From Candidatus Aldehydirespirator sp. (lineage in GTDB: Bacteria; Actinomycetota; Acidimicrobiia; Acidimicrobiales; Aldehydirespiratoraceae), in assembly GCA_965261105.1 (NCBI GenBank), contig CBDHCM010000006.1:1540405-1604404 (forward strand): a stretch of DNA of 64,000 bases, read 5' to 3'. The position numbers and the translations under genes are program-made. Positions 39,502 to 47,990 of this stretch are shown in pieces. The notes beneath the pieces are model-generated. The model was not told the origin of the DNA. It made no database searches and saw nothing but the letters and a program-made list of their open reading frames with translations. Every line of letters begins with the position of its first letter. Position 1 is the stretch's first letter.

Positions 39502-40029
39502 CTACAGGTATGTGCCTGGGAGGGTCCCGGCGGCGGCCGGCGCGGCGCTCTGGCGGTACGGGTCGGCGCCCGGCGGCAGCTCGCCCCGCATGGACTGCAG
39601 CTGCTGGTGGGCGGTCATCTGCTGGGCCAGCAGCATGGCCTTCATGCCCTGGATAAGGCCCTCGAGCCAGCCCACCAGCTGAGCTTTGGCGATCTGGAGC
39701 TCGATCGCGGAGGGGGCCTCGGGCTGGTCGAAGGGCGAGGCGAGCCGGGCCAGCTCCTCGCGCAGGTCCTGCGACAGCGCCGAGCCGACCTCCCGCACCG
39801 ACGTCTCGTAGATATCGCGCAGCCGCTGCCGGCTGGCCTCGTCGAGGTCGGTCGAGCGGACCTCGCCCAGCAACTGCTTGAGCATCGTGCCGATGCGCAT
39901 GATCTTGGCCGGATGGTCGATGGTCTCGTTGATCTCGTCGTCGTCCTCGCCACCGGCAACGTCGATCACCTCCGGTGCCAGCGCCTCGAACTCGTCGTCG
40001 CGCCTCTCGCTGCTGCGGTCGGAGTCCAC
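39502..40029 (-). CDS. bpa: Bacterial proteasome activator (Bpa/PafE family)
   Basis: HPAKIMRIGTMLKQLLGEVR...LDEASRQRLRDIYETS...AKAQLVGWLEGL, with a C-terminal ...GTYL that resembles mycobacterial Bpa ending GQYL. An alternative GTG start is at 40065. Confidence 0.8.
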   Translation of the reverse strand: MDSDRSSERRDDEFEALAPEVIDVAGGEDDDEINETIDHPAKIMRIGTMLKQLLGEVRSTDLDEASRQRLRDIYETSVREVGSALSQDLREELARLASPFDQPEAPSAIELQIAKAQLVGWLEGLIQGMKAMLLAQQMTAHQQLQSMRGELPPGADPYRQSAAPAAAGTLPGTYL

Positions 40030-40088
40030 GGGTCCAACCCTAGAGGCAGCGCGGATGGGTGTCACCGCCTCGCGGCGATGGATCTTGT

Positions 40089-41213
40089 CTACGACACGTG
40101 GACGAGGAGCGGCACCAGCATCTCGGCCGACGTGAGCGAGCCGTGCCGGCCGATGAGCTTGGAGCCGCCGTCGTCGGGATGGGCGAAGGCCCAGCCGTCC
40201 CGGGCCACCAGGGCCACGTCGCCCAACCGGGACCGGGCCGCGTCGGTGACGACCGGTCCCAGCCAGCCGCCGTCGACTATTTCGGAGGCGGTGTGGACCC
40301 ACGCCTGCTCTCCGTGGGCGCCGGCTGCGGCCTCGTAGAGGTCGCGGTCCCGGCCTGGCCGGGCGTGCAGCCAGCGGAAGCGGGCCTCGCCCGACTCTGC
40401 CTGCGCGCAGTCGAGCACCGAGCGGTCGATCCTGACCAGACCCTCGGAGCAGTCCACCAGACCGTGGTCGGATATGGCCACCACCGCGACTCCCCGGGGG
40501 AGGACGGTGAGCAGGTCGGCCATCAGCCGGTCGCAGGCCCGCAGCTCGGCGTCGTAGTGCTCCCCGAAGCCGTGCTCGTGGGCCACGACGTCGAGGCCCT
40601 CGTAGTAGGCGTAGACGAAGGACTCCCCCGCGGCCAGCAGGCGCCGCACCTCCACCGCAAGGCTCGACAGCATCTTGTAGCCGAAGCGGCGGGCGTCGCG
40701 CAGGTAGGCGCGGCTGAACCCCGACTTGCGGTACTCGGCCTTCTGGAGCGCAGGAGGGCGCTGCCCGCCGAATGACGGGATCGGCTGGAACCGCTCGGGC
40801 GGATGGCGGTCGAGTCCGTCGCCCTGGGACGTCCTCCACTTCAAGACGTTGAGATTGCCGTCGCAGGTTCGGATCCGGTAACCCACGACGCCGTGCTCGC
40901 CGACCCCGACGCCGGTGGCTATGGAGGTGAGCGCGGCTGCCGTGGTGCTCGGCGCGACGGTGGTGATGGTGGCGGCGTGCATCTCGTTGAGCGTGGGCGC
41001 GACGCGCCGCCGGGCTGCGAGCTGCTCGGCACCCAGCCCGTCGAGGACCAGCACCACCACGGCCCGAGCGTCGAGCACTTCGGCAGGCAGTGGGCTCGCG
41101 GCCGCGCTCCGGCCGGGTTCCAGGATCGCGGGCACGATGTCGGCCACGCACCCGCCGCCGTATGCGGGCAGGACCGGCTCTCGGAGCGCGGGGATCGGTT
41201 CCGGGCGAGCCAC
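40089..41213 (-). CDS. Alkaline phosphatase superfamily protein (nucleotide pyrophosphatase/phosphodiesterase type)
   Basis: VVLVLDGLGAEQL, APSTTAAALTSIATG and VVAISDHG motifs. The start is uncertain; GTG 41213 was chosen to avoid overlapping the divergent Rrf2 gene. Confidence 0.65.
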   Translation of the reverse strand: MARPEPIPALREPVLPAYGGGCVADIVPAILEPGRSAAASPLPAEVLDARAVVVLVLDGLGAEQLAARRRVAPTLNEMHAATITTVAPSTTAAALTSIATGVGVGEHGVVGYRIRTCDGNLNVLKWRTSQGDGLDRHPPERFQPIPSFGGQRPPALQKAEYRKSGFSRAYLRDARRFGYKMLSSLAVEVRRLLAAGESFVYAYYEGLDVVAHEHGFGEHYDAELRACDRLMADLLTVLPRGVAVVAISDHGLVDCSEGLVRIDRSVLDCAQAESGEARFRWLHARPGRDRDLYEAAAGAHGEQAWVHTASEIVDGGWLGPVVTDAARSRLGDVALVARDGWAFAHPDDGGSKLIGRHGSLTSAEMLVPLLVHVS

Positions 41214-41226
41214 GGCATCTAGGATG

Positions 41227-41320
41227 CCACCATGAGGGCGTCGACACGCGGGGACTGCGCCGCGCCGTCCGTCGCCGCGGCTCGACCATGAGGGTGTCCA
41301 CACGCGGCGACTATGCGTCC
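41227..41320 (+). repeat. 56-bp-offset duplication of the Rrf2 gene start; the upstream copy is a 19-codon mini-ORF ending in ATGA at the real start
   Basis: CCACCATGAGGGCGTCGACACGCGGGGACTGCGC and CGACCATGAGGGTGTCCACACGCGGCGACTATGC match at 28 of 34 positions by eye. The mini-ORF 41232-41291 reads MRASTRGDCAAPSVAAARP-TGA. The TGA overlaps ATG 41288. Confidence 0.8.
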
Positions 41321-41737
41321 CGCGCCCTGCTGTCCTTGGCGTTGCACAGCGAGAACACCCCGACCTCGGTGCGGGAGATCGCCGAGCGCACCGCGCTCCC
41401 CCAGCCGTACCTGGAGCAGATACTGCTGGCCCTCAAGGGAGCCGGGCTGGTGCGCTCGAAGCGGGGCGTGGGCGGCGGGTATGTGCTGGCCCGCGACCCC
41501 TCCGACATCAAGCTGTCGGACATCGTGCGGGCGGTGGACGGGCCCATCTCCGCCGGCGACTTCGGGGAGCCGCACACCGACGGAGCCTGCGACCACGAGG
41601 GTCAGTGCGTGCTGCTGGCGATCTGGTCGGCCTCGGGCTCGCACATGCGGCGCTTCCTCGACTCTTTCAGCCTGTCTCAGATAACGACCATGGCCCAGGG
41701 CGAGTCCCCCTGGCCGGTGGACGAGGAGTCCATCTAG
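41288..41737 (+). CDS. Rrf2-family transcriptional regulator
   Basis: MRVSTRGDYASRALLSLALHSENTPTSVREIAERTALPQPYLEQILLALKGAGLVRSKRGVGGGYVLAR. Confidence 0.9.
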   Translation: MRVSTRGDYASRALLSLALHSENTPTSVREIAERTALPQPYLEQILLALKGAGLVRSKRGVGGGYVLARDPSDIKLSDIVRAVDGPISAGDFGEPHTDGACDHEGQCVLLAIWSASGSHMRRFLDSFSLSQITTMAQGESPWPVDEESI

Positions 41738-41826: not shown

Positions 41827-42903
41827 TCAGCCGCGAGCCGTCGCCAGCCAGCCGTCCGCGATGTCCCGGTTGGCCTCTATCCAGGCTGCGGCGTCGGCCC
41901 GGATCTCCGCGTCGGAGTAACCGAGATCAGCGTTGGCCATCTTGGCGTTCTGGGTCGCGATGTCCGACAGCGGTATGGACACGACTTCCAGCAGGCGGCG
42001 GATGTCGGGGTTGTCGTCGAGGAAGTCCTCGTTGCCGACGGCGCGGATGCTGCTGACCGCCCAGCCCAGGTTGCACGGGTTCGACGCGCAGCCCCTCAGG
42101 CCCTGCACCTCCGTTGAGGCCTCCTCGTCCTCGAGGGCGGGCGACTCTAGCCATACCACATCGGTTCCGGGGGTGAGGACCTCGTAGGTCCAGTTGGGCG
42201 TCCATGCGTAGAACAGCGCCGGCTCGCCCGCGGCCACGCGGTCGCGCACCGCGCGGACCAGGTCGTTGTAGTCGCCGGAGACCTGCTCGACGTTCTCGCC
42301 CCAATCGAGCTCCGCGATGTGGGAGTCGATGACGCCGTTGCAGCCCCATCCCTCGTTGCACCCGATCAGGTTGGCCAGACCGTCGCCGTCGGAGTCGAAC
42401 ACCCGGGCTACCGAGGCGTCGGCCAAATCGCTCATCGAAGTAATGCCGTTGGCGTCGGCGGTGGCCTTGTCGATCATGTAGCCCTGCAGGGCTCCGGAGC
42501 GCACCTGGAATCCGACCGGCTCTATGGGCAGGTCGGTGGACTGGCCGGTGACCAGTTCGCCCTCCAGGTAGATGTCGTGGAGGGGGAACCAGCCGTTGAC
42601 CCAGAGGTCGAACTGGCCGGTGGCCAGCGCGGGATAGAACCCGTTGGGATCGCGGGTGTTCTCGGCCGGGTCGCTGACCTGGTGCCCGAGCTCTCCTATG
42701 AGTTGGGCGTAGATGGCGGCCTGCATGTAGCCGCTGTCCCAGTTGGCCCGGGCCATCGTCACCTCGCCGTCGTCGGCGTCGGCCGCGCAGGCCGAGAGCA
42801 CCAGCGCCAATGCGGCCAACACGGCGGTCAGGATCGTGGTGGTCCTGCCGGTGATGCTGCGATTCGTCATTTCAGGCCTCCTCGTGTCGCGTGTCCTGTT
42901 CAT
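41827..42903 (-). CDS. ProX/OpuAC-type glycine betaine (compatible solute) binding lipoprotein
   Basis: Lipobox LALVLSAC, ARANWDSGYMQAAIYAQL, DLWVNGWFPLHD, GALQGYMID and YAWTPNWT. Its ATG overlaps the BCCT stop (ATGA at 42900-42903). Confidence 0.8.
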   Translation of the reverse strand: MNRTRDTRRPEMTNRSITGRTTTILTAVLAALALVLSACAADADDGEVTMARANWDSGYMQAAIYAQLIGELGHQVSDPAENTRDPNGFYPALATGQFDLWVNGWFPLHDIYLEGELVTGQSTDLPIEPVGFQVRSGALQGYMIDKATADANGITSMSDLADASVARVFDSDGDGLANLIGCNEGWGCNGVIDSHIAELDWGENVEQVSGDYNDLVRAVRDRVAAGEPALFYAWTPNWTYEVLTPGTDVVWLESPALEDEEASTEVQGLRGCASNPCNLGWAVSSIRAVGNEDFLDDNPDIRRLLEVVSIPLSDIATQNAKMANADLGYSDAEIRADAAAWIEANRDIADGWLATARG

Positions 42904-44726
42904 TTCTTGGCGCCTGCCTCGAGCCTGGACTTGACCGTTTCGATCAGGCCGCTGTGCTGGGTGCGGAAGATTGCCTCGTCGTAGTGGCTCTCCAGGAGGT
43001 CCAGCTCCTCATTGAAGGCCTTCCTGAGGCTCCAGCACATGACCAGCAGGATCAGCGCGAAGGGAAGCCCGGTGGACACCGCCGCGGTCTGTAGCGCCGA
43101 CAGTCCCCCACCGAGCAGCAGGACTATGGCCACGCCGCCCTCCATCATTGCCCAGAACACTCGCTGGGGCTTCGGAGAGTCCAGCTTGCCGCCCGAGGTG
43201 AGGTGGTCCACCACCAGCGACCCGGAGTCCGAGGATGTCACGAAGAACGAGACGAGCAGCAGCACGCCGACCAGCGACACGATGCTGGTGAGCGGGAAGG
43301 CCTCCAGCATGTCGAACAATGCGGTGGCGACGTTGTCGTTGACCGCGGTGGCCACGTCGCGCTCGCCGCTGAGCTGCAGGTCGATGGCCGCGCCGCCGAA
43401 GACGGAGAACCAGGCGAAGCACAGCAACGACGGCAGGAACATGACGCCGGTGAGCAACTCCCGCACGGAGCGGCCCTTCGAGATGCGGGCCACGAACATC
43501 CCCACGAACGGCGACCACGAGATCCACCATCCCCAATAGAAGATGGTCCAGCCGGCCTGCCAGTTGGTGCCGGTGAATGCCTCGTTCCAGAACCCGAACT
43601 CGGGCAGGATCTGGACGTAGTAGCCGACGCTCTGGGTGAACAGCGACAGCATGAACAGCGTCGGGCCGACCAGTGCCACGAACAGCAGGAAGCCGCCTGC
43701 CAGGTAGATGTTGATCTGGCTCAGCCGTTTCACTCCGGCGTCGAGCCCTGCGACCACCGAGATGGTGGCCAGGCCTGTGATGGCGATGATCAGCACGATC
43801 TGGAAGCCGGTGCCGGAGGGCAGGCCGTAGAGCTTGTTGAGCCCGGCCGCGGCCTGCTGCGCCCCCAGGCCCAGCGAGGTCGCCAGACCGAACAGGGTGG
43901 CTACGACGGTCAGGGTGTCGATGGCGTTGCCCCAGTGCCCGTAGATCCTCGGCCCGAGTATCGGATAGAAGATCGAACGGAACGTGAGCGGAAGGCCCCG
44001 GTTGTAGGCGAAGAAGCCCAAGGCGAGCGCTACCAGTCCGTACAGCGCCCAGGCGTGAATGCCCCAGTGCAGGAAGGTGGTGCCCACCGCGGCCTTGGCG
44101 GCCTCTCCCGTGCCGGGCTCAGCGCCGAACAGCGGGGGCGGCGACGCCAGGTGGTAGATCGGCTCGGCCACGCCCCAGAACATCAACCCGATGCCGATGC
44201 CCGCCGATATCAGCATCGCGTACCAGGCGCCGGTGGAGAACTCCGGACGGGCGCGCGGGCCGCCGAGACGTATCTTCCCGTACCGGCTGAAGGCGAAGTA
44301 CAGCGCCACGAACAGGAAGATGTTGAAGTCGATGATGTACAGCCACCCGAGCTTCTCGTTGATGAACCCCAGCACCTCGCTGAAGATGGTGCTGGCCGAG
44401 TCCTGGAAGATCAGGGTGAAGCCGATGAACACCGCCATGAATCCGGCCGACGAGAACGTCACCGTCGGGTGGATGTCGAAGCCCCACCTCACGATGTTCT
44501 TGTCGCCGGGCTCCCGGTTGGCCACCTCCGGGTAGAAGTCGATGTCGGGATCGATCTGGAGTCCTTCGAAGGGCCTGCGGTCGCTGATCGCCTCCTCTCG
44601 ATGCCGCGCCTCCTCGGCCTCCCAGTCCTGGAGGGCCCGGGTGGCCTCGGTGAGATCTATGTCGGTGTCATCGGGGCTTTGATGGATCCGAGGATCCCGC
44701 TCCGCCCCGGTGTCTTCGGCGTCCAT
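42900..44726 (-). CDS. BCCT-family betaine/carnitine/choline transporter
   Basis: From ATG 44726. It has the 12-TM body with AWYAMLISAGIGIGLMFWGVAEP and WTIFYWGWWISWSPFVGMFVARISKGRS (the BCCT signature). Confidence 0.9.
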   Translation of the reverse strand: MDAEDTGAERDPRIHQSPDDTDIDLTEATRALQDWEAEEARHREEAISDRRPFEGLQIDPDIDFYPEVANREPGDKNIVRWGFDIHPTVTFSSAGFMAVFIGFTLIFQDSASTIFSEVLGFINEKLGWLYIIDFNIFLFVALYFAFSRYGKIRLGGPRARPEFSTGAWYAMLISAGIGIGLMFWGVAEPIYHLASPPPLFGAEPGTGEAAKAAVGTTFLHWGIHAWALYGLVALALGFFAYNRGLPLTFRSIFYPILGPRIYGHWGNAIDTLTVVATLFGLATSLGLGAQQAAAGLNKLYGLPSGTGFQIVLIIAITGLATISVVAGLDAGVKRLSQINIYLAGGFLLFVALVGPTLFMLSLFTQSVGYYVQILPEFGFWNEAFTGTNWQAGWTIFYWGWWISWSPFVGMFVARISKGRSVRELLTGVMFLPSLLCFAWFSVFGGAAIDLQLSGERDVATAVNDNVATALFDMLEAFPLTSIVSLVGVLLLVSFFVTSSDSGSLVVDHLTSGGKLDSPKPQRVFWAMMEGGVAIVLLLGGGLSALQTAAVSTGLPFALILLVMCWSLRKAFNEELDLLESHYDEAIFRTQHSGLIETVKSRLEAGAKK

Positions 44727-44732
44727 TGCAGT

Positions 44733-44849
44733 CCCTCCGGGTCGACTCTCCTGAACCTGGATGCACACCCGGAAACCGGCATAACACCAGGACATCGTTG
44801 AATCTAGCACGGCCACGTATCCCGTGCAGGAGGAGTCGACCTCGGGAGG
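44733..44849. promoter_or_regulatory. Inverted pair of a ~22-nt motif in the BCCT/channel divergent intergenic region
   Basis: Read in the direction of each gene: CAGGAGAGTCGACCCGGAGGG (BCCT leader, plus-strand 44733-44753) and CAGGAGGAGTCGACCTCGGGAGG (channel leader, 44827-44849). Confidence 0.4.
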
Positions 44850-44899
44850 CCGGACGGTCATCCGGCTACTCTTGGCCCACGTCTATCCGGGTGCCGCCA

Positions 44900-46972
44900 A
44901 TGCGCCGAGCTTTCATCGTCGTCCTGGGATTGATGGCAGTCGCGCTGTTGGCCCCGCTCGGTGCTGGGGCGGCCGGCCTGTCCGACGAGGCGCCCCGAGT
45001 GCGTCTGGCCCGGGCCACCTGGGACACGGGCTGGTTCCAAGCGGAGGTCTACGGGCTCCTGCTGGAGCGGCTGGGCTACCGGGTGGATGGCCCGGTGACG
45101 ATGGGCAACACCGAGTTCTACGAGGCCGTGGCCGGGGGCGAAGTCGACCTGTGGGCCAACGGCTGGTTCCCGCTGCACGACTCTTTGATCGAGGAGTCGG
45201 CTCCGGTTGAGGTGGTTGGCACAGCCGTGGACGATGGAGCCCTCCAGGGCTATTTCGTAGACGCAGCCACCGCCGAGGCCCACGGCATCACGAGCCTGGG
45301 GGACCTCGCCGACCCCGCGGTGGCCGCGCTGTTCGACCACGACGGCGACGGCCGGGCCGACCTGGTCGGCTGCGAGGTCGGATGGTCGTGCGCTCTGACC
45401 ATCGACCACCATCTGCAGGCCTACGGGCTGTCGGACACTGTGGAGCACGTGCAGGGCGACTACTCGCCCCTCATCGGCGAGACCATCGCCCGCTACCGCT
45501 CCGGCCGGCCCGTGCTCTACTACACGTGGACCCCCAACTGGACGGTCGGCGAGATGGTTCCCGGCCGCGACGCGGTTTGGCTCGAGGTGCCCTTCGCTTC
45601 GCTTCCCCTCGAACAGGCCCGAGCCCTGGACCGCACCTCGGTGGCCGGGATTCCCGGATGCGCCAACGACCCCTGCCTGACCGGCTGGCCGCCGAACGAC
45701 ATCCGCGCCGTTGCCAATTCGGACTTCCTGGAGGCCAACCCGTCGGTGCGCAGACTCTTGGAGCAGGTGGTCATACCCCTCGCCGACATATCCGCGCAGA
45801 ACGTGCGGATGGTGACCGAGGGCGGGGATCCTGCGGACATACGGCGCCATGCCGAGGAGTGGATGGCGGCCAACTTGGCGTCGGTCGACCGGTGGGTCTC
45901 CGCCGCCGACCCCCGGGCCGTGGCGCTGGAGGAGTCTGCTGCCGACGCGACCGGGGCCGAAGGCACCCTGACGGTGGCGGCGCGCGCCCTGCCACCGTTC
46001 GTGATCTACGAGAACCGCTCCTACAGCGGATTCGAGGTCGAGCTGGTTCGGCTCGTCGCGGCCAAGCTTGGCATGTCGGTCGACATCTACGCGGTCGACA
46101 CTGTCGCCAAGCAGATCGACGACATCAGCCGCGGCGTTGCCCGGCTCGGGCTGGGAGGGGTGGCCATCACCGAGTCGCGCGAGGAGGTCGTGGACTTCTC
46201 GCTCCCGGTGCTGGACTCAGGCCTGACCATCCTGACCACGAACGACGACTCGCGTGGCATCGGCGGTCGGATGCTGTCCTTCCTCGATGCCGTCGCCTCA
46301 TCGGATCTGCCCTGGCTGCTGGTTGTCTTCGGCGTGGCCGTGCTGGTCTCCGCGCACTTGATCTGGTGGCTGGAGCGCCATGACAATCCAGACTTCGCGG
46401 TCCCCTACCGCCGCGGCATCTGGGACTCGTTCTATTGGTCGGTGGTGACGATGAGCACCGTCGGGTACGGCGACAAGGTGGCTAGAGGAACGAGGGGCCG
46501 CCTTCTGGCGCTGGTGTGGATAGCCATGGGAACCCTGGTCTTCGCCAGTTTCACCGCAGCCATCGCTTCCTCATTGGCGGTCAACGAGCTGCGATCCGAG
46601 ATCTCCGGACCCTCCGACCTGACGGGCCGGCGGGTTGCCACCGTTACCCACTCGGCCGGGGAGGCGTACCTTCCCTCCATCGGGGTGGGTCCGGTGCTGG
46701 TGGACAGCATCGACGACGCCTATCCCCTGCTGGCGGAGGGCGAGGTGGAAGCGATCGTGTTCGATGCTCCCGTGCTGCAGTTCCATGCCGCCCGCGAGGG
46801 CGCCGGGGAGGTCACGACGGTGGGATCTGACTTTCAGAAGGTGCAGTACGGCCTGATGCTTGGATCCGACGACGCCGAGCTGCGCGAGCGCCTCAACCTT
46901 GCGATTCTCGAACTCATCGAGAACGGTGTGTATGGGCGGCTGCACGACGCGTGGTTCGGAGCCCAGCGCTGA
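44900..46972 (+). CDS. Fusion protein: signal peptide + ProX/OpuAC-like binding domain + GluR0-type ligand-gated K+ channel (split SBP type 3 clamshell around an M1-P-M2 pore)
   Basis: MRRAFIVVLGLMAVALLAPLGAGAAG; a ProX paralogue block (ARATWDTGWFQAEVY, DLWANGWFPLHD, YTWTPNWT); S1 lobe TLTVAARALPPFVIYEN...VDFSLPVLDSGLTIL; TM LPWLLVVFGVAVLVSAHLIWWL; selectivity filter TMSTVGYGD (46457-46474); TM RLLALVWIAMGTLVFASF; and an S2 lobe running to the C-terminus. Confidence 0.8.
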   Translation: MRRAFIVVLGLMAVALLAPLGAGAAGLSDEAPRVRLARATWDTGWFQAEVYGLLLERLGYRVDGPVTMGNTEFYEAVAGGEVDLWANGWFPLHDSLIEESAPVEVVGTAVDDGALQGYFVDAATAEAHGITSLGDLADPAVAALFDHDGDGRADLVGCEVGWSCALTIDHHLQAYGLSDTVEHVQGDYSPLIGETIARYRSGRPVLYYTWTPNWTVGEMVPGRDAVWLEVPFASLPLEQARALDRTSVAGIPGCANDPCLTGWPPNDIRAVANSDFLEANPSVRRLLEQVVIPLADISAQNVRMVTEGGDPADIRRHAEEWMAANLASVDRWVSAADPRAVALEESAADATGAEGTLTVAARALPPFVIYENRSYSGFEVELVRLVAAKLGMSVDIYAVDTVAKQIDDISRGVARLGLGGVAITESREEVVDFSLPVLDSGLTILTTNDDSRGIGGRMLSFLDAVASSDLPWLLVVFGVAVLVSAHLIWWLERHDNPDFAVPYRRGIWDSFYWSVVTMSTVGYGDKVARGTRGRLLALVWIAMGTLVFASFTAAIASSLAVNELRSEISGPSDLTGRRVATVTHSAGEAYLPSIGVGPVLVDSIDDAYPLLAEGEVEAIVFDAPVLQFHAAREGAGEVTTVGSDFQKVQYGLMLGSDDAELRERLNLAILELIENGVYGRLHDAWFGAQR

Positions 46973-46996
46973 TGCCTCTGCGTGTCGGCCTCTGTT

Positions 46997-47069
46997 GGTT
47001 CCCGCTCGCCTTCGCTGCGCTCACGGGCCGCTCGGGCCCGGGTTCCCGCTCGCCTTCGCTCGGCCTCTA
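46997..47069 (+). repeat. Intergenic repeat family, degenerate copy E with an internal 44-bp-period repeat
   Basis: GGTTCCCGCTCGCCTTCGCT occurs at 46997-47016 and 47041-47060, flanking GCGCTCACGGGCCGCTCGGGCC. The tail TTCGCTCGGCCTCT overlaps the rluD stop. Confidence 0.75.
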
Positions 47070-47990
47070 GGACAGCGAGGCCAGCACAGTGGCCAGATCG
47101 TCGGGAAGGGGAGCCTCGGCCCGGACGGTCGTGCCGCTGACGGGGTGGCTGAACGCAAGGCTGCGAGCGTGCAGGAACGGGCGAGAGAGCCCGAAGACGT
47201 CGTCGGAGCGCCCCGGGCCGTAGGCGGGATCACCGACTACCGGGTGGCCGATGGCCCGGAGATGGACCCTGATCTGGTGGGTGCGACCGGTCTCGAGCCG
47301 GCACTCCAGCAGCGCAACACGCGCCGGCTCGGCGTAGCGCCGCTCCACGGTGTAGCGGGTGCGGGCCGGTCGGCCCCGGTCCTTCAGCGTCATTCGCTGC
47401 GGATTGCGGCTCGACCGGCCGATCGGAGCGTCTATCAGGCCCGAAGGCGCTTCCGGGTGCCCCCGCACCAGGGCGCAGTACACCCGCTCCGGCTGGTGGG
47501 CGCGCATCTGCTCAACCAGCAGCTGATAGGCCCGCTCGGTGCGGGCCACCACCAGCAGCCCCGAGGTGCCCCGGTCGAGCCTGTGCACGATCCCGGGCCG
47601 GTAGGGGTCGCCGACTCCGGCGATGTCGGGATAGCGGGCCAGCAGGCCGTGAACCAGCGTGCGGCTGTCGTGCCCCGCACCGGGGTGGACAACCAGGCCG
47701 GCGGGCTTGTCCACCACGACGAGGTCCGGATCCTCAAAGACCGTCCCGAAAACGACATCGGGGTCGGCCGCCGGCTGAGGATCGTCCCGGAGGTCGATGT
47801 GGACGGCCAGCGACTCGCCCTCGGCGACCCGCCTGGTGCCCGAGGTGACCACTGCACCGTCGAGGCGCACGCCGCCGGTGGCCACCAGCCGGGCTGCAAC
47901 GGAGCGGCTCACATCGGCCGCGAGAGCCACGGCGCGGTCAAGCCTCAGGCCGTCGAGAGCTGAGCCGACGATCTCGCCCGGAGGGCTCAT
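47067..47990 (-). CDS. rluD: RluA/RluD-family pseudouridine synthase
   Basis: From ATG 47990. It has an S4-like N-terminus and the catalytic block GIVHRLDRGTSGLLVVA...GRTHQIRVHL. Confidence 0.85.
   Translation of the reverse strand: MSPPGEIVGSALDGLRLDRAVALAADVSRSVAARLVATGGVRLDGAVVTSGTRRVAEGESLAVHIDLRDDPQPAADPDVVFGTVFEDPDLVVVDKPAGLVVHPGAGHDSRTLVHGLLARYPDIAGVGDPYRPGIVHRLDRGTSGLLVVARTERAYQLLVEQMRAHQPERVYCALVRGHPEAPSGLIDAPIGRSSRNPQRMTLKDRGRPARTRYTVERRYAEPARVALLECRLETGRTHQIRVHLRAIGHPVVGDPAYGPGRSDDVFGLSRPFLHARSLAFSHPVSGTTVRAEAPLPDDLATVLASLS

Follow-up and report, generated by a model that had tools for sequence, protein, structure and literature searches.

The 64,000-nucleotide stretch of DNA analysed here (the window throughout) belongs to a Candidatus Aldehydirespirator genome of the Acidimicrobiia. 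It carries a gene for a 690-residue protein in which a ProX-type domain of the OpuAC family precedes a K+ channel of the GluR0 type, a prokaryotic relative of the ionotropic glutamate receptors (iGluRs). Across a short spacer, this gene diverges from a two-gene operon encoding a BCCT-family transporter and a free ProX-type lipoprotein (Table 1). A sequence-only reading of the stretch had proposed the order signal peptide, ProX, S1-M1-P-M2-S2, where P is the pore helix and filter and S1 and S2 are the two lobes that make up the ligand-binding domain (LBD). This order has been borne out by profile hidden Markov models, PDB sequence matches, AlphaFold and Foldseek. The fusion is a genuine variant of the GluR0 family, conserved and widespread but uncharacterised, whose N-terminal layer of the osmolyte-binding type was gained independently.

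The Pfam profiles expected from that reading have all been matched in the protein: OpuAC over residues 33-323 (E 1.5e-49), SBP_bac_3 as a split match over residues 358-687, Lig_chan over residues 472-576 and Ion_trans_2 over residues 480-559. Lig_chan-Glu_bd is matched over residues 357-448, and the NCBIfam ProX equivalog NF008334 scores 344 bits against a cut-off of 215. The added N-terminal domain (NTD) had been read as an osmoprotectant-binding fold and not as a LIVBP-type domain. This holds, since OpuAC is matched and neither ANF_receptor nor Peripla_BP_6 has a Pfam match in the protein; BPD_transp_1 has none there either. The filter lies exactly where it had been placed. The ATG at 44900 is the start position in most homologues, and cleavage of the signal peptide is predicted between AGA and AG. 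At the other end, the stop codon follows directly after WFGAQR, 4 residues past the last S2 helix, and neither an M4 helix nor a cytoplasmic C-terminal domain is present in the sequence or in the model.

Table 1. Features of the fusion locus, with positions in the window, and BCCT-binding protein pairs on other contigs (last four rows, positions in each contig). ORF, open reading frame; pLDDT, predicted local distance difference test.
Feature	Coordinates	Strand	Residues and basis
ProX-NTD/GluR0-type K+ channel fusion gene	44900..46972	+	stop-free ORF, 690 aa plus stop
Signal peptide	44900..44974	+	about residues 1-25; MRR, hydrophobic core, AGA-AG; read from sequence
ProX-type (OpuAC) extracytoplasmic domain	44996..45907	+	residues 33-336; W89/W162/W210, H93, disulfide C158-C164
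NTD-LBD linker	45908..45964	+	residues 337-355; low identity, variable length, low pLDDT
S1 lobe of LBD	45965..46255	+	residues 356-452, including Y375, T424, R427; Pfam and 2pyy alignment
M1 helix	46307..46375	+	residues 470-492; AlphaFold helix, Lig_chan and Ion_trans_2 matches
Pore helix and K+ selectivity filter	46406..46474	+	residues 503-525; Ion_trans_2 E 2.6e-14
TVGYGD filter	46457-46474	+	residues 520-525
M2 inner (gate) helix	46490..46588	+	residues 531-563, motif FASFTAAIASSLAV; model helix 531-564
S2 lobe of LBD	46595..46969	+	residues 566-690, including S585, D622; aligns to 2pyy residues 104-222
Divergent spacer, BCCT operon to fusion gene	44727..44899		173 bp, gene calls
BCCT-family transporter, first gene of partner operon	42900..44726	-	608 aa; Pfam BCCT E 3.6e-190
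Free ProX-type lipoprotein, second operon gene	41827..42903	-	347-358 aa; OpuAC E 1.8e-40, ProX equivalog 276 bits
BCCT and free binding protein, L085	3370-5963
BCCT and free binding protein, L086	3398-6013
BCCT and free binding protein, L088	3154-5771
BCCT and free binding protein, L095	9265-11975

The window is 70% G+C, and long ORFs alone therefore prove little. A misassembly, a frameshifted gene pair or a decaying pseudogene would also give a fused frame; genomes of this composition yield long spurious ORFs, one of which has been found nearby, and no clear Shine-Dalgarno sequence or promoter has been detected at the fusion gene (a scan of 44600-47200 returned no sigma-70-like promoter and no terminator). 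On the other hand, the identical protein is present on four contigs, two of them shown to be from separate assemblies. A scan limited to one genome per species has given 80 full-length relatives at 62-82% identity. All are from metagenome-assembled genomes of Acidimicrobiia, largely sponge symbionts (Ca. Poriferisodalis, Spongiisocius, Aldehydirespirator), with many complete chromosomes among them, and the frame across both halves is uninterrupted in 80/80. The ProX and channel parts had been taken to form one reading frame, and no frameshift or stop separates them in the window or in the 80 related loci. Across the 81 Acidimicrobiia sequences, identity to the window protein stands at 77% for ProX, 78% for S1, 87% for the membrane domain and 72% for S2, and at only 43% for the 19-residue linker and 40% for the signal peptide. 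Signal peptides are usually poorly conserved. Every module of the protein is under purifying selection, and full-length homologues number in the hundreds. An artefact is already refuted by these observations, and we leave it practically no probability.

The ProX layer has been compared with E. coli ProX. Residues 39-336 of the fusion match 1r9l in the PDB sequence search (E 2.6e-66), and the same structure, ProX with glycine betaine, ranks top in Foldseek (template modelling score 0.88, root-mean-square deviation 2.6 Å, 38% identity in the alignment). The betaine site of E. coli ProX, which we take to consist of W65, W140, W188, His69 and the Cys136-Cys142 loop, is mapped by the 1r9l alignment to W89, W162, W210, H93 and C158/C164 of the fusion. 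Conservation of these residues has been followed in two sets, namely the 81 Acidimicrobiia sequences and a cross-group set of 72 sequences from Acidimicrobiia, Desulfobacterales and cyanobacteria. W89, W162 and both cysteines are found in 81/81 and 72/72, respectively. W210 is present in 77/81 (Phe in the other 4) and in 72/72, and H93 in 77/81 and 62/72. The layer is predicted from these residues to bind glycine betaine or a related methylated amine.

The free ProX of the neighbouring operon had been called a paralogue of the fused domain. The two are 47% identical (E 3e-92), and every sequence block cited for the paralogy is found in the alignment. A recent copy of this neighbour has been ruled out as the source of the fused domain, which is 57-61% identical to the fused domains of Desulfobacterales-like genomes as against 47% to the neighbour. 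It follows from the same comparison that the fusion is old and monophyletic. The linker that joins the ProX layer to the LBD varies from 19 to 42 residues across the family and is probably flexible.

In the channel half, the Nostoc punctiforme GluR0 LBD (2pyy) is matched in two segments, one half by residues 356-451 and the other by residues 568-687, the S1 lobe aligning to 2pyy residues 4-99. This is the best LBD match in the PDB sequence search, in which chains of NMDA receptors and plant glutamate receptor-like proteins rank after it. TVGYGD is conserved in 81/81 Acidimicrobiia and 72/72 cross-group sequences. The same counts are 81/81 and 65/72 for R427 (α-carboxylate), 81/81 and 70/72 for D622 (α-amino) and 74/81 and 66/72 for S585; the lid tyrosine Y375 is found in 72/72 of the cross-group set. 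In the alignment, R427 and D622 fall on the Arg and the Asp that are conserved in 2pyy; their counterparts in GluA2 are presumably R485 and E705. Owing to this conservation in both sets, the K+ filter and the pockets of the two sensors look functional. At the position of GluA2 T655, which contacts the distal carboxylate of glutamate, Ala is found in 77/81 Acidimicrobiia sequences and Thr in 39/72 of the cross-group set. Different lineages may therefore use different amino acids as agonist, and in Acidimicrobiia it is possibly not glutamate.

The M2 motif FASFTAAIASSLAV is nearly invariant in the 81 Acidimicrobiia sequences. The outer end of M2 (residues 550-563, 46547-46588) reads SFTAAIASSLAV, with YFTASVTTT as the family consensus. 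By eye, this segment partly resembles the SYTANLAAF gating motif of eukaryotic receptors (S-[FY]-T-A-x-[ILV]), and it is also nearly invariant in the Acidimicrobiia set.

An AlphaFold monomer computed from close homologues only reached a pLDDT of 57, and this model has been discarded. The monomer computed from the 72-sequence, three-group alignment has a pLDDT of 82.6 and is the one used for the structure results. Its helices are the signal peptide (2-17), M1 (470-492), the pore helix (503-519) and M2 (531-564). Confidence is low only where the signal peptide ends (18-29), in the NTD-LBD linker (341-353, pLDDT below 50) and in the two LBD-pore linkers (450-457 and 559-565). Foldseek returns AMPA-receptor chains of LBD plus transmembrane domain at probability 1.0 and, at rank 43, the GlnPQ SBD1-SBD2 tandem. 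The topology can be deduced from these parts: with the signal peptide in front, ProX and S1 lie outside, M1 runs inward, the pore loop re-enters from the cytoplasmic side and M2 leads out to S2. This pore orientation is inverted relative to canonical K+ channels and has been shown experimentally for Synechocystis GluR0 (PMC13099474).

The partner operon has the layout that had been read from the sequence, with the BCCT gene divergent from the fusion gene. The longest ORF of the free ProX overlaps the BCCT stop by 4 nt, and its product has an intact Trp box and the lipobox LSAC, in agreement with its earlier designation as a lipoprotein. No proV, proW or other ABC permease or ATPase gene has been called within 10 kb on either side of the fusion gene. 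An Rfam scan of the whole window found no match, so no riboswitch is seen in the divergent spacer. The closest solved relative of the window BCCT is TmaT (8zw8, 515 bits), followed by an unnamed BCCT, choline carriers and BetP (306 bits). TmaT is a Na+/trimethylamine symporter (PMC11708041). The window BCCT also falls under the NCBIfam betaine-BCCT cut-off (555 vs 650). Since it is nearest to TmaT rather than to BetP and falls below this cut-off, its substrate is probably some methylated amine, not necessarily glycine betaine, and the ligand could likewise be a methylated amine other than betaine. At its N-terminus the window BCCT carries an acidic extension (net charge -15), and its short C-terminal tail is not basic; the Desulfobacterales-like BCCTs have no terminal extensions. 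The free binding protein of the operon may serve the BCCT, the channel or a distant ABC system.

The linkage of these genes is not limited to the window. By tblastn with the window neighbours, the BCCT-ProX pair adjoins the fusion in about 76 of the 80 Acidimicrobiia loci. The arrangement is divergent in most of them, co-directional in the order BCCT, ProX, fusion in 8 and convergent in 4. One Acidimicrobiales genome (OZ220747.1) has two copies of the fusion, one with the BCCT-ProX pair (L027) and one with neither BCCT nor ProX within 8 kb (L010). Three long contigs (L085, L086 and L088) carry fusions 64-85% identical to Desulfobacterales/Deltaproteobacteria proteins, in the co-directional order BCCT (520 residues), OpuAC (306 residues), fusion. 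A further order, fusion, BCCT, OpuAC, is seen in L095 (with fusion P0123). The triad thus occurs in four gene orders and in at least two phyla. The free binding protein of the Desulfobacterales-like triads comes from another OpuAC subfamily, only 22-25% identical to the ProX-type domains, and the BCCTs are 48% identical across phyla. A scan of metagenome contigs with P0352 for the triad outside Acidimicrobiia returned only two fragments. It follows from these arrangements that the triad of BCCT, free betaine-type binding protein and ProX-channel has been kept even as its genes were rearranged or replaced by non-orthologous ones, and this speaks strongly for a shared function of its members.

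Two other neighbours of the operon have been noted. An Rrf2-family regulator (41288-41737, +) lies just downstream of the ProX end and is convergent with the operon. Beyond it, a 599-residue ORF (39502-41301, -) includes a Bpa (proteasome activator) domain, and whatever lies upstream of this domain in the ORF is spurious. A frame that overlaps it, 40089-41303, of the Phosphodiest family, is far better conserved in related loci (81-96% vs 64-92%; 58% vs 34% in L077), and the real genes are a short Bpa gene (39502-40029) and a phosphodiesterase-family gene (40089-41213).

The breadth of the family has been assessed by a cluster search over 1.84 billion representatives. Additional full-length fusions are found there at 34-50% identity (P0121, P0123-P0130 and P0134), and P0122 carries two tandem ProX domains. 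A search seeded with P0124 gave 767 matches, of which the best 120 all have the same architecture; where NCBI gives an organism, this is one of the cyanobacteria Xenococcaceae, Symploca and Leptolyngbyaceae or belongs to Desulfobacterales/Deltaproteobacteria. The architecture is therefore widespread and present in the databases under a wrong name. It is not rare, as the fusion forms a large family labelled 'ProX'. The NCBI name of its members (P0001-P0120, P0272-P0389) is 'glycine betaine/L-proline ABC transporter substrate-binding protein ProX', given because the N-terminal half passes the ProX equivalog threshold while the channel half is ignored. This naming is a systematic mis-annotation that covers half of the protein. 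The JGI names for the fusions are composite transporter names.

In two contigs of metagenome SRR14610174, overlapping tandem fusion pairs have been observed (P0122 and P0134 in L089, 8001-13097; P0130 and P0126 in L090, 5981-10073), which suggests heteromeric channels. P0122 and P0134 have SGREGWG in place of TVGYGD, a non-K+ pore, and degraded Trp boxes, P0134 being without the W65 equivalent. P0126 and P0130 keep TVGYGD and are without the W140 equivalent. A 606-residue cNMP-binding protein is encoded directly upstream in L089. ProX-type OpuAC domains have also been found fused to partners other than a channel, namely VWA plus SBP_bac_11, a WD40 propeller, caspase plus PEGA, Peripla_BP_6, a second ProX domain and an ABC permease (P0136, P0145, P0155, P0211, P0142/P0174/P0183 and P0268, the last with the permease). 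The domain seems to have found wide reuse as an extracytoplasmic sensor module.

The sequence-only reading went on to suggest that an external compatible solute gates or modulates the K+ channel. This is not proven; the Trp box that is invariant in three groups and the conserved triad support it. The best explanation at present, to which we would give an even chance, is a tetrameric GluR0-type K+ channel with the LBD as its gate, a ProX layer tuned by a methylated amine, and a coupling to uptake by the BCCT. The LBD would be the primary gate because R427 and D622, which hold the α-carboxylate and α-amino groups, are kept. Its closure on an amino acid would pull M2 open, as in GluR0 and the iGluRs. 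The Trp box would cage the trimethylammonium group, with H93 alongside, and the ProX layer would shift the open probability or the desensitisation allosterically, like the NTD of NMDA receptors. With the osmolyte present, the channel would conduct K+, and this flow would balance the charge and the osmotic load of electrogenic, Na+-coupled osmolyte uptake, K+ being exchanged for the organic osmolyte. Alternatively, the channel may clamp the membrane potential near the K+ equilibrium potential. With about 10 mM K+ in seawater and at membrane potentials typical of bacteria, the driving force would be inward at rest and reversed if uptake depolarises the cell, so that K+ might flow either way. A more far-reaching proposal, in which the BCCT, the free binding protein and the channel are one functional unit, an external methylated amine directly controls the K+ conductance through ProX, and bacteria separately invented a two-layer iGluR with another fold, is tentative, and on balance we lean against it.

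Several observations weigh against the explanation by a tuned and BCCT-coupled channel. The ligand, the coupling of ProX to the gate and the direction of the K+ flux are all things that we infer, and the AlphaFold monomer, with a predicted template modelling score of 0.49, gives no reliable inter-domain geometry. The NTD-LBD linker varies in length and sequence and does not suggest rigid coupling, although the NTD-LBD linkers of iGluRs are also loose. R427 is missing from 7/72 cross-group sequences, and in some divergent relatives the Trp box is incomplete or the K+ filter has gone. No BCCT adjoins the fusion in cyanobacteria-assigned or -like loci (L081, L087, L091 and L092) and in one locus of unassigned lineage (L096), and the channel can therefore function outside the triad. 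Activation of a BetP-like carrier by K+ entering through the channel is not supported, as the partner BCCTs have no basic, K+-sensing C-terminal domain.

Three other accounts of the ProX layer have been weighed against this explanation. The layer could be tethered to the membrane to capture osmolyte for the BCCT, or for an ABC importer encoded elsewhere, in the manner of the binding domains fused in OpuA and GlnPQ, and send no signal to the pore; the channel would then be an anchor or a neighbour in a transporter-channel complex and be gated only by its own LBD. The flexible linker of variable length does look like a tether, the BCCT has stayed linked to the fusion, fusions of ProX-type domains with ABC permeases exist elsewhere (as in P0268), and a second, lipid-anchored betaine-type binding protein in the module hints that binding proteins serve the BCCT. 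We know of no BCCT carrier that uses a binding protein, however, and the Trp box is invariant in cyanobacteria-assigned or -like fusions despite the lack of a BCCT nearby. A lipoprotein anchor like that of the free ProX would also be a far cheaper tether than a K+ channel, and we regard delivery by a tethered domain as unlikely.

The ProX layer could also be the main agonist sensor, with betaine binding opening the channel and S1/S2 serving mostly as a mechanical transducer, constitutively occupied or ligand-independent. The module is built around methylated-amine uptake, ambient amino acids could hold the LBD occupied, and the Trp box, at 72/72, is stricter than the LBD arginine at 65/72. Against this, the domain joined to M1 and M2 is the one that gates in all the iGluRs and GluR0 channels whose study we are aware of. 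The only route from the ProX layer to the pore is by way of a disordered linker and the LBD, and R427 and D622 are still strongly selected; we see only a small chance for a betaine-opened channel. A purely structural layer, which like the NTDs of AMPA receptors would serve tetramer assembly, stability or localisation in an amino-acid-gated K+ channel, is quite improbable in our judgement. The domain persists where Trp-box residues are lost (P0126, P0130 and P0134), and eukaryotic NTDs are, as far as we are aware, often ligand-free. Yet the three box tryptophans and the Cys pair of the binding-site loop are invariant in 72 sequences from three groups, which is hard to explain without a ligand, and there is the linkage of the gene to a transporter for methylated amines.

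Sponge-symbiont Acidimicrobiia and marine Desulfobacterales and cyanobacteria stand out as carriers of the family, and methylated amines are major osmolytes and nutrients in such habitats. If an external methylated amine controls the K+ conductance through ProX, as in the more far-reaching proposal, the fusion would be the first ion channel in nature that a compatible solute gates or tunes and would supply a missing molecular link from the K+ phase to the organic-osmolyte phase of bacterial osmoadaptation. The coordination of K+ flux with compatible-solute uptake is a long-standing question, which the linkage of the fusion to the BCCT makes directly testable. The fusion is also a natural experiment on how a second sensor layer is coupled to an iGluR gate, and it offers a compact modular scaffold for engineering ligand-gated K+ channels. 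The systematic annotation of the family as 'ProX, ABC transporter substrate-binding protein' can now be corrected.

In textbooks and reviews, the extra layer of iGluRs is held to be a eukaryotic, LIVBP-type addition, whereas, as the present family shows, at least three groups of bacteria acquired a distal clamshell by themselves, from another binding-protein family. Reviews of 2021 and 2025 describe prokaryotic iGluRs as having no NTD, and a 2010 survey (Ger et al. 2010) has no ProX-fusion member. A natural fusion of OpuAC with an iGluR or GluR0 is likewise not found in a review of binding-protein signalling or in recent papers on iGluR evolution. No characterised example had been known to the first reading, and no paper on such a fusion has been found since, in a search with most subscription journals outside its reach.

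Among the known systems, GluR0 (Synechocystis slr1257; Nostoc punctiforme, 2pyy) shares with the fusion the S1-M1-P-M2-S2 order, TVGYGD, the lack of M4 and of a C-terminal domain, and the LBD arginine and acidic residue for an α-amino acid. The C-terminal half of the fusion shares 35-41% identity with GluR0-like proteins that stand alone. GluR0 itself has no NTD, whereas about 300 residues of ProX domain precede S1 in the fusion. GluR0 of Synechocystis conducts K+ and has an effect on the volume of the cells after a KCl upshock (PMC13099474). Eukaryotic iGluRs have three layers in common with the fusion, namely a distal clamshell, an LBD clamshell and a pore of inverted K+-channel topology, and a loose NTD-LBD linker as well. 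Their distal domain is of the LIVBP/ANF_receptor type, and they have an M4, a C-terminal domain and a cation pore with a Q/R/N site; the fusion has none of these and carries OpuAC/ProX and a K+ filter instead. Since the distal fold is OpuAC/ProX and not LIVBP, the layer was acquired independently.

On the side of the binding domain, E. coli ProX has the same fold and the equivalents of the Trp box, the His and the Cys pair, and the fusion scores above the ProX equivalog cut-off. E. coli ProX is free in the periplasm and partners the ProU ABC system, whereas the domain of the fusion is covalently joined to a channel. In OpuA (Lactococcus lactis) and GlnPQ, a binding domain is carried on a flexible linker to a membrane protein, as in the fusion, but that membrane protein is an ABC permease and not an ion channel. 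CosB/CosT of Halobacterium salinarum uses an OpuAC-family sensor, as the fusion does; CosB is a separate lipoprotein that acts on a methyl-accepting transducer and signals compatible solutes (glycine betaine, choline, carnitine) to this chemoreceptor (PMC8050422). One of the closest functional parallels, beside CosB/CosT and the part of GluR0 in cell-volume control, is an engineered one. In the GluR0-EhuB chimera of Bernhard and Laube (bioRxiv 2021, 10.1101/2021.01.27.428399), EhuB, a compatible-solute protein, was placed on the GluR0 pore as its LBD and could gate it, giving solute-dependent K+ currents. That chimera is artificial and EhuB replaces the LBD, whereas the fusion is natural and its domain has been added atop an intact LBD.

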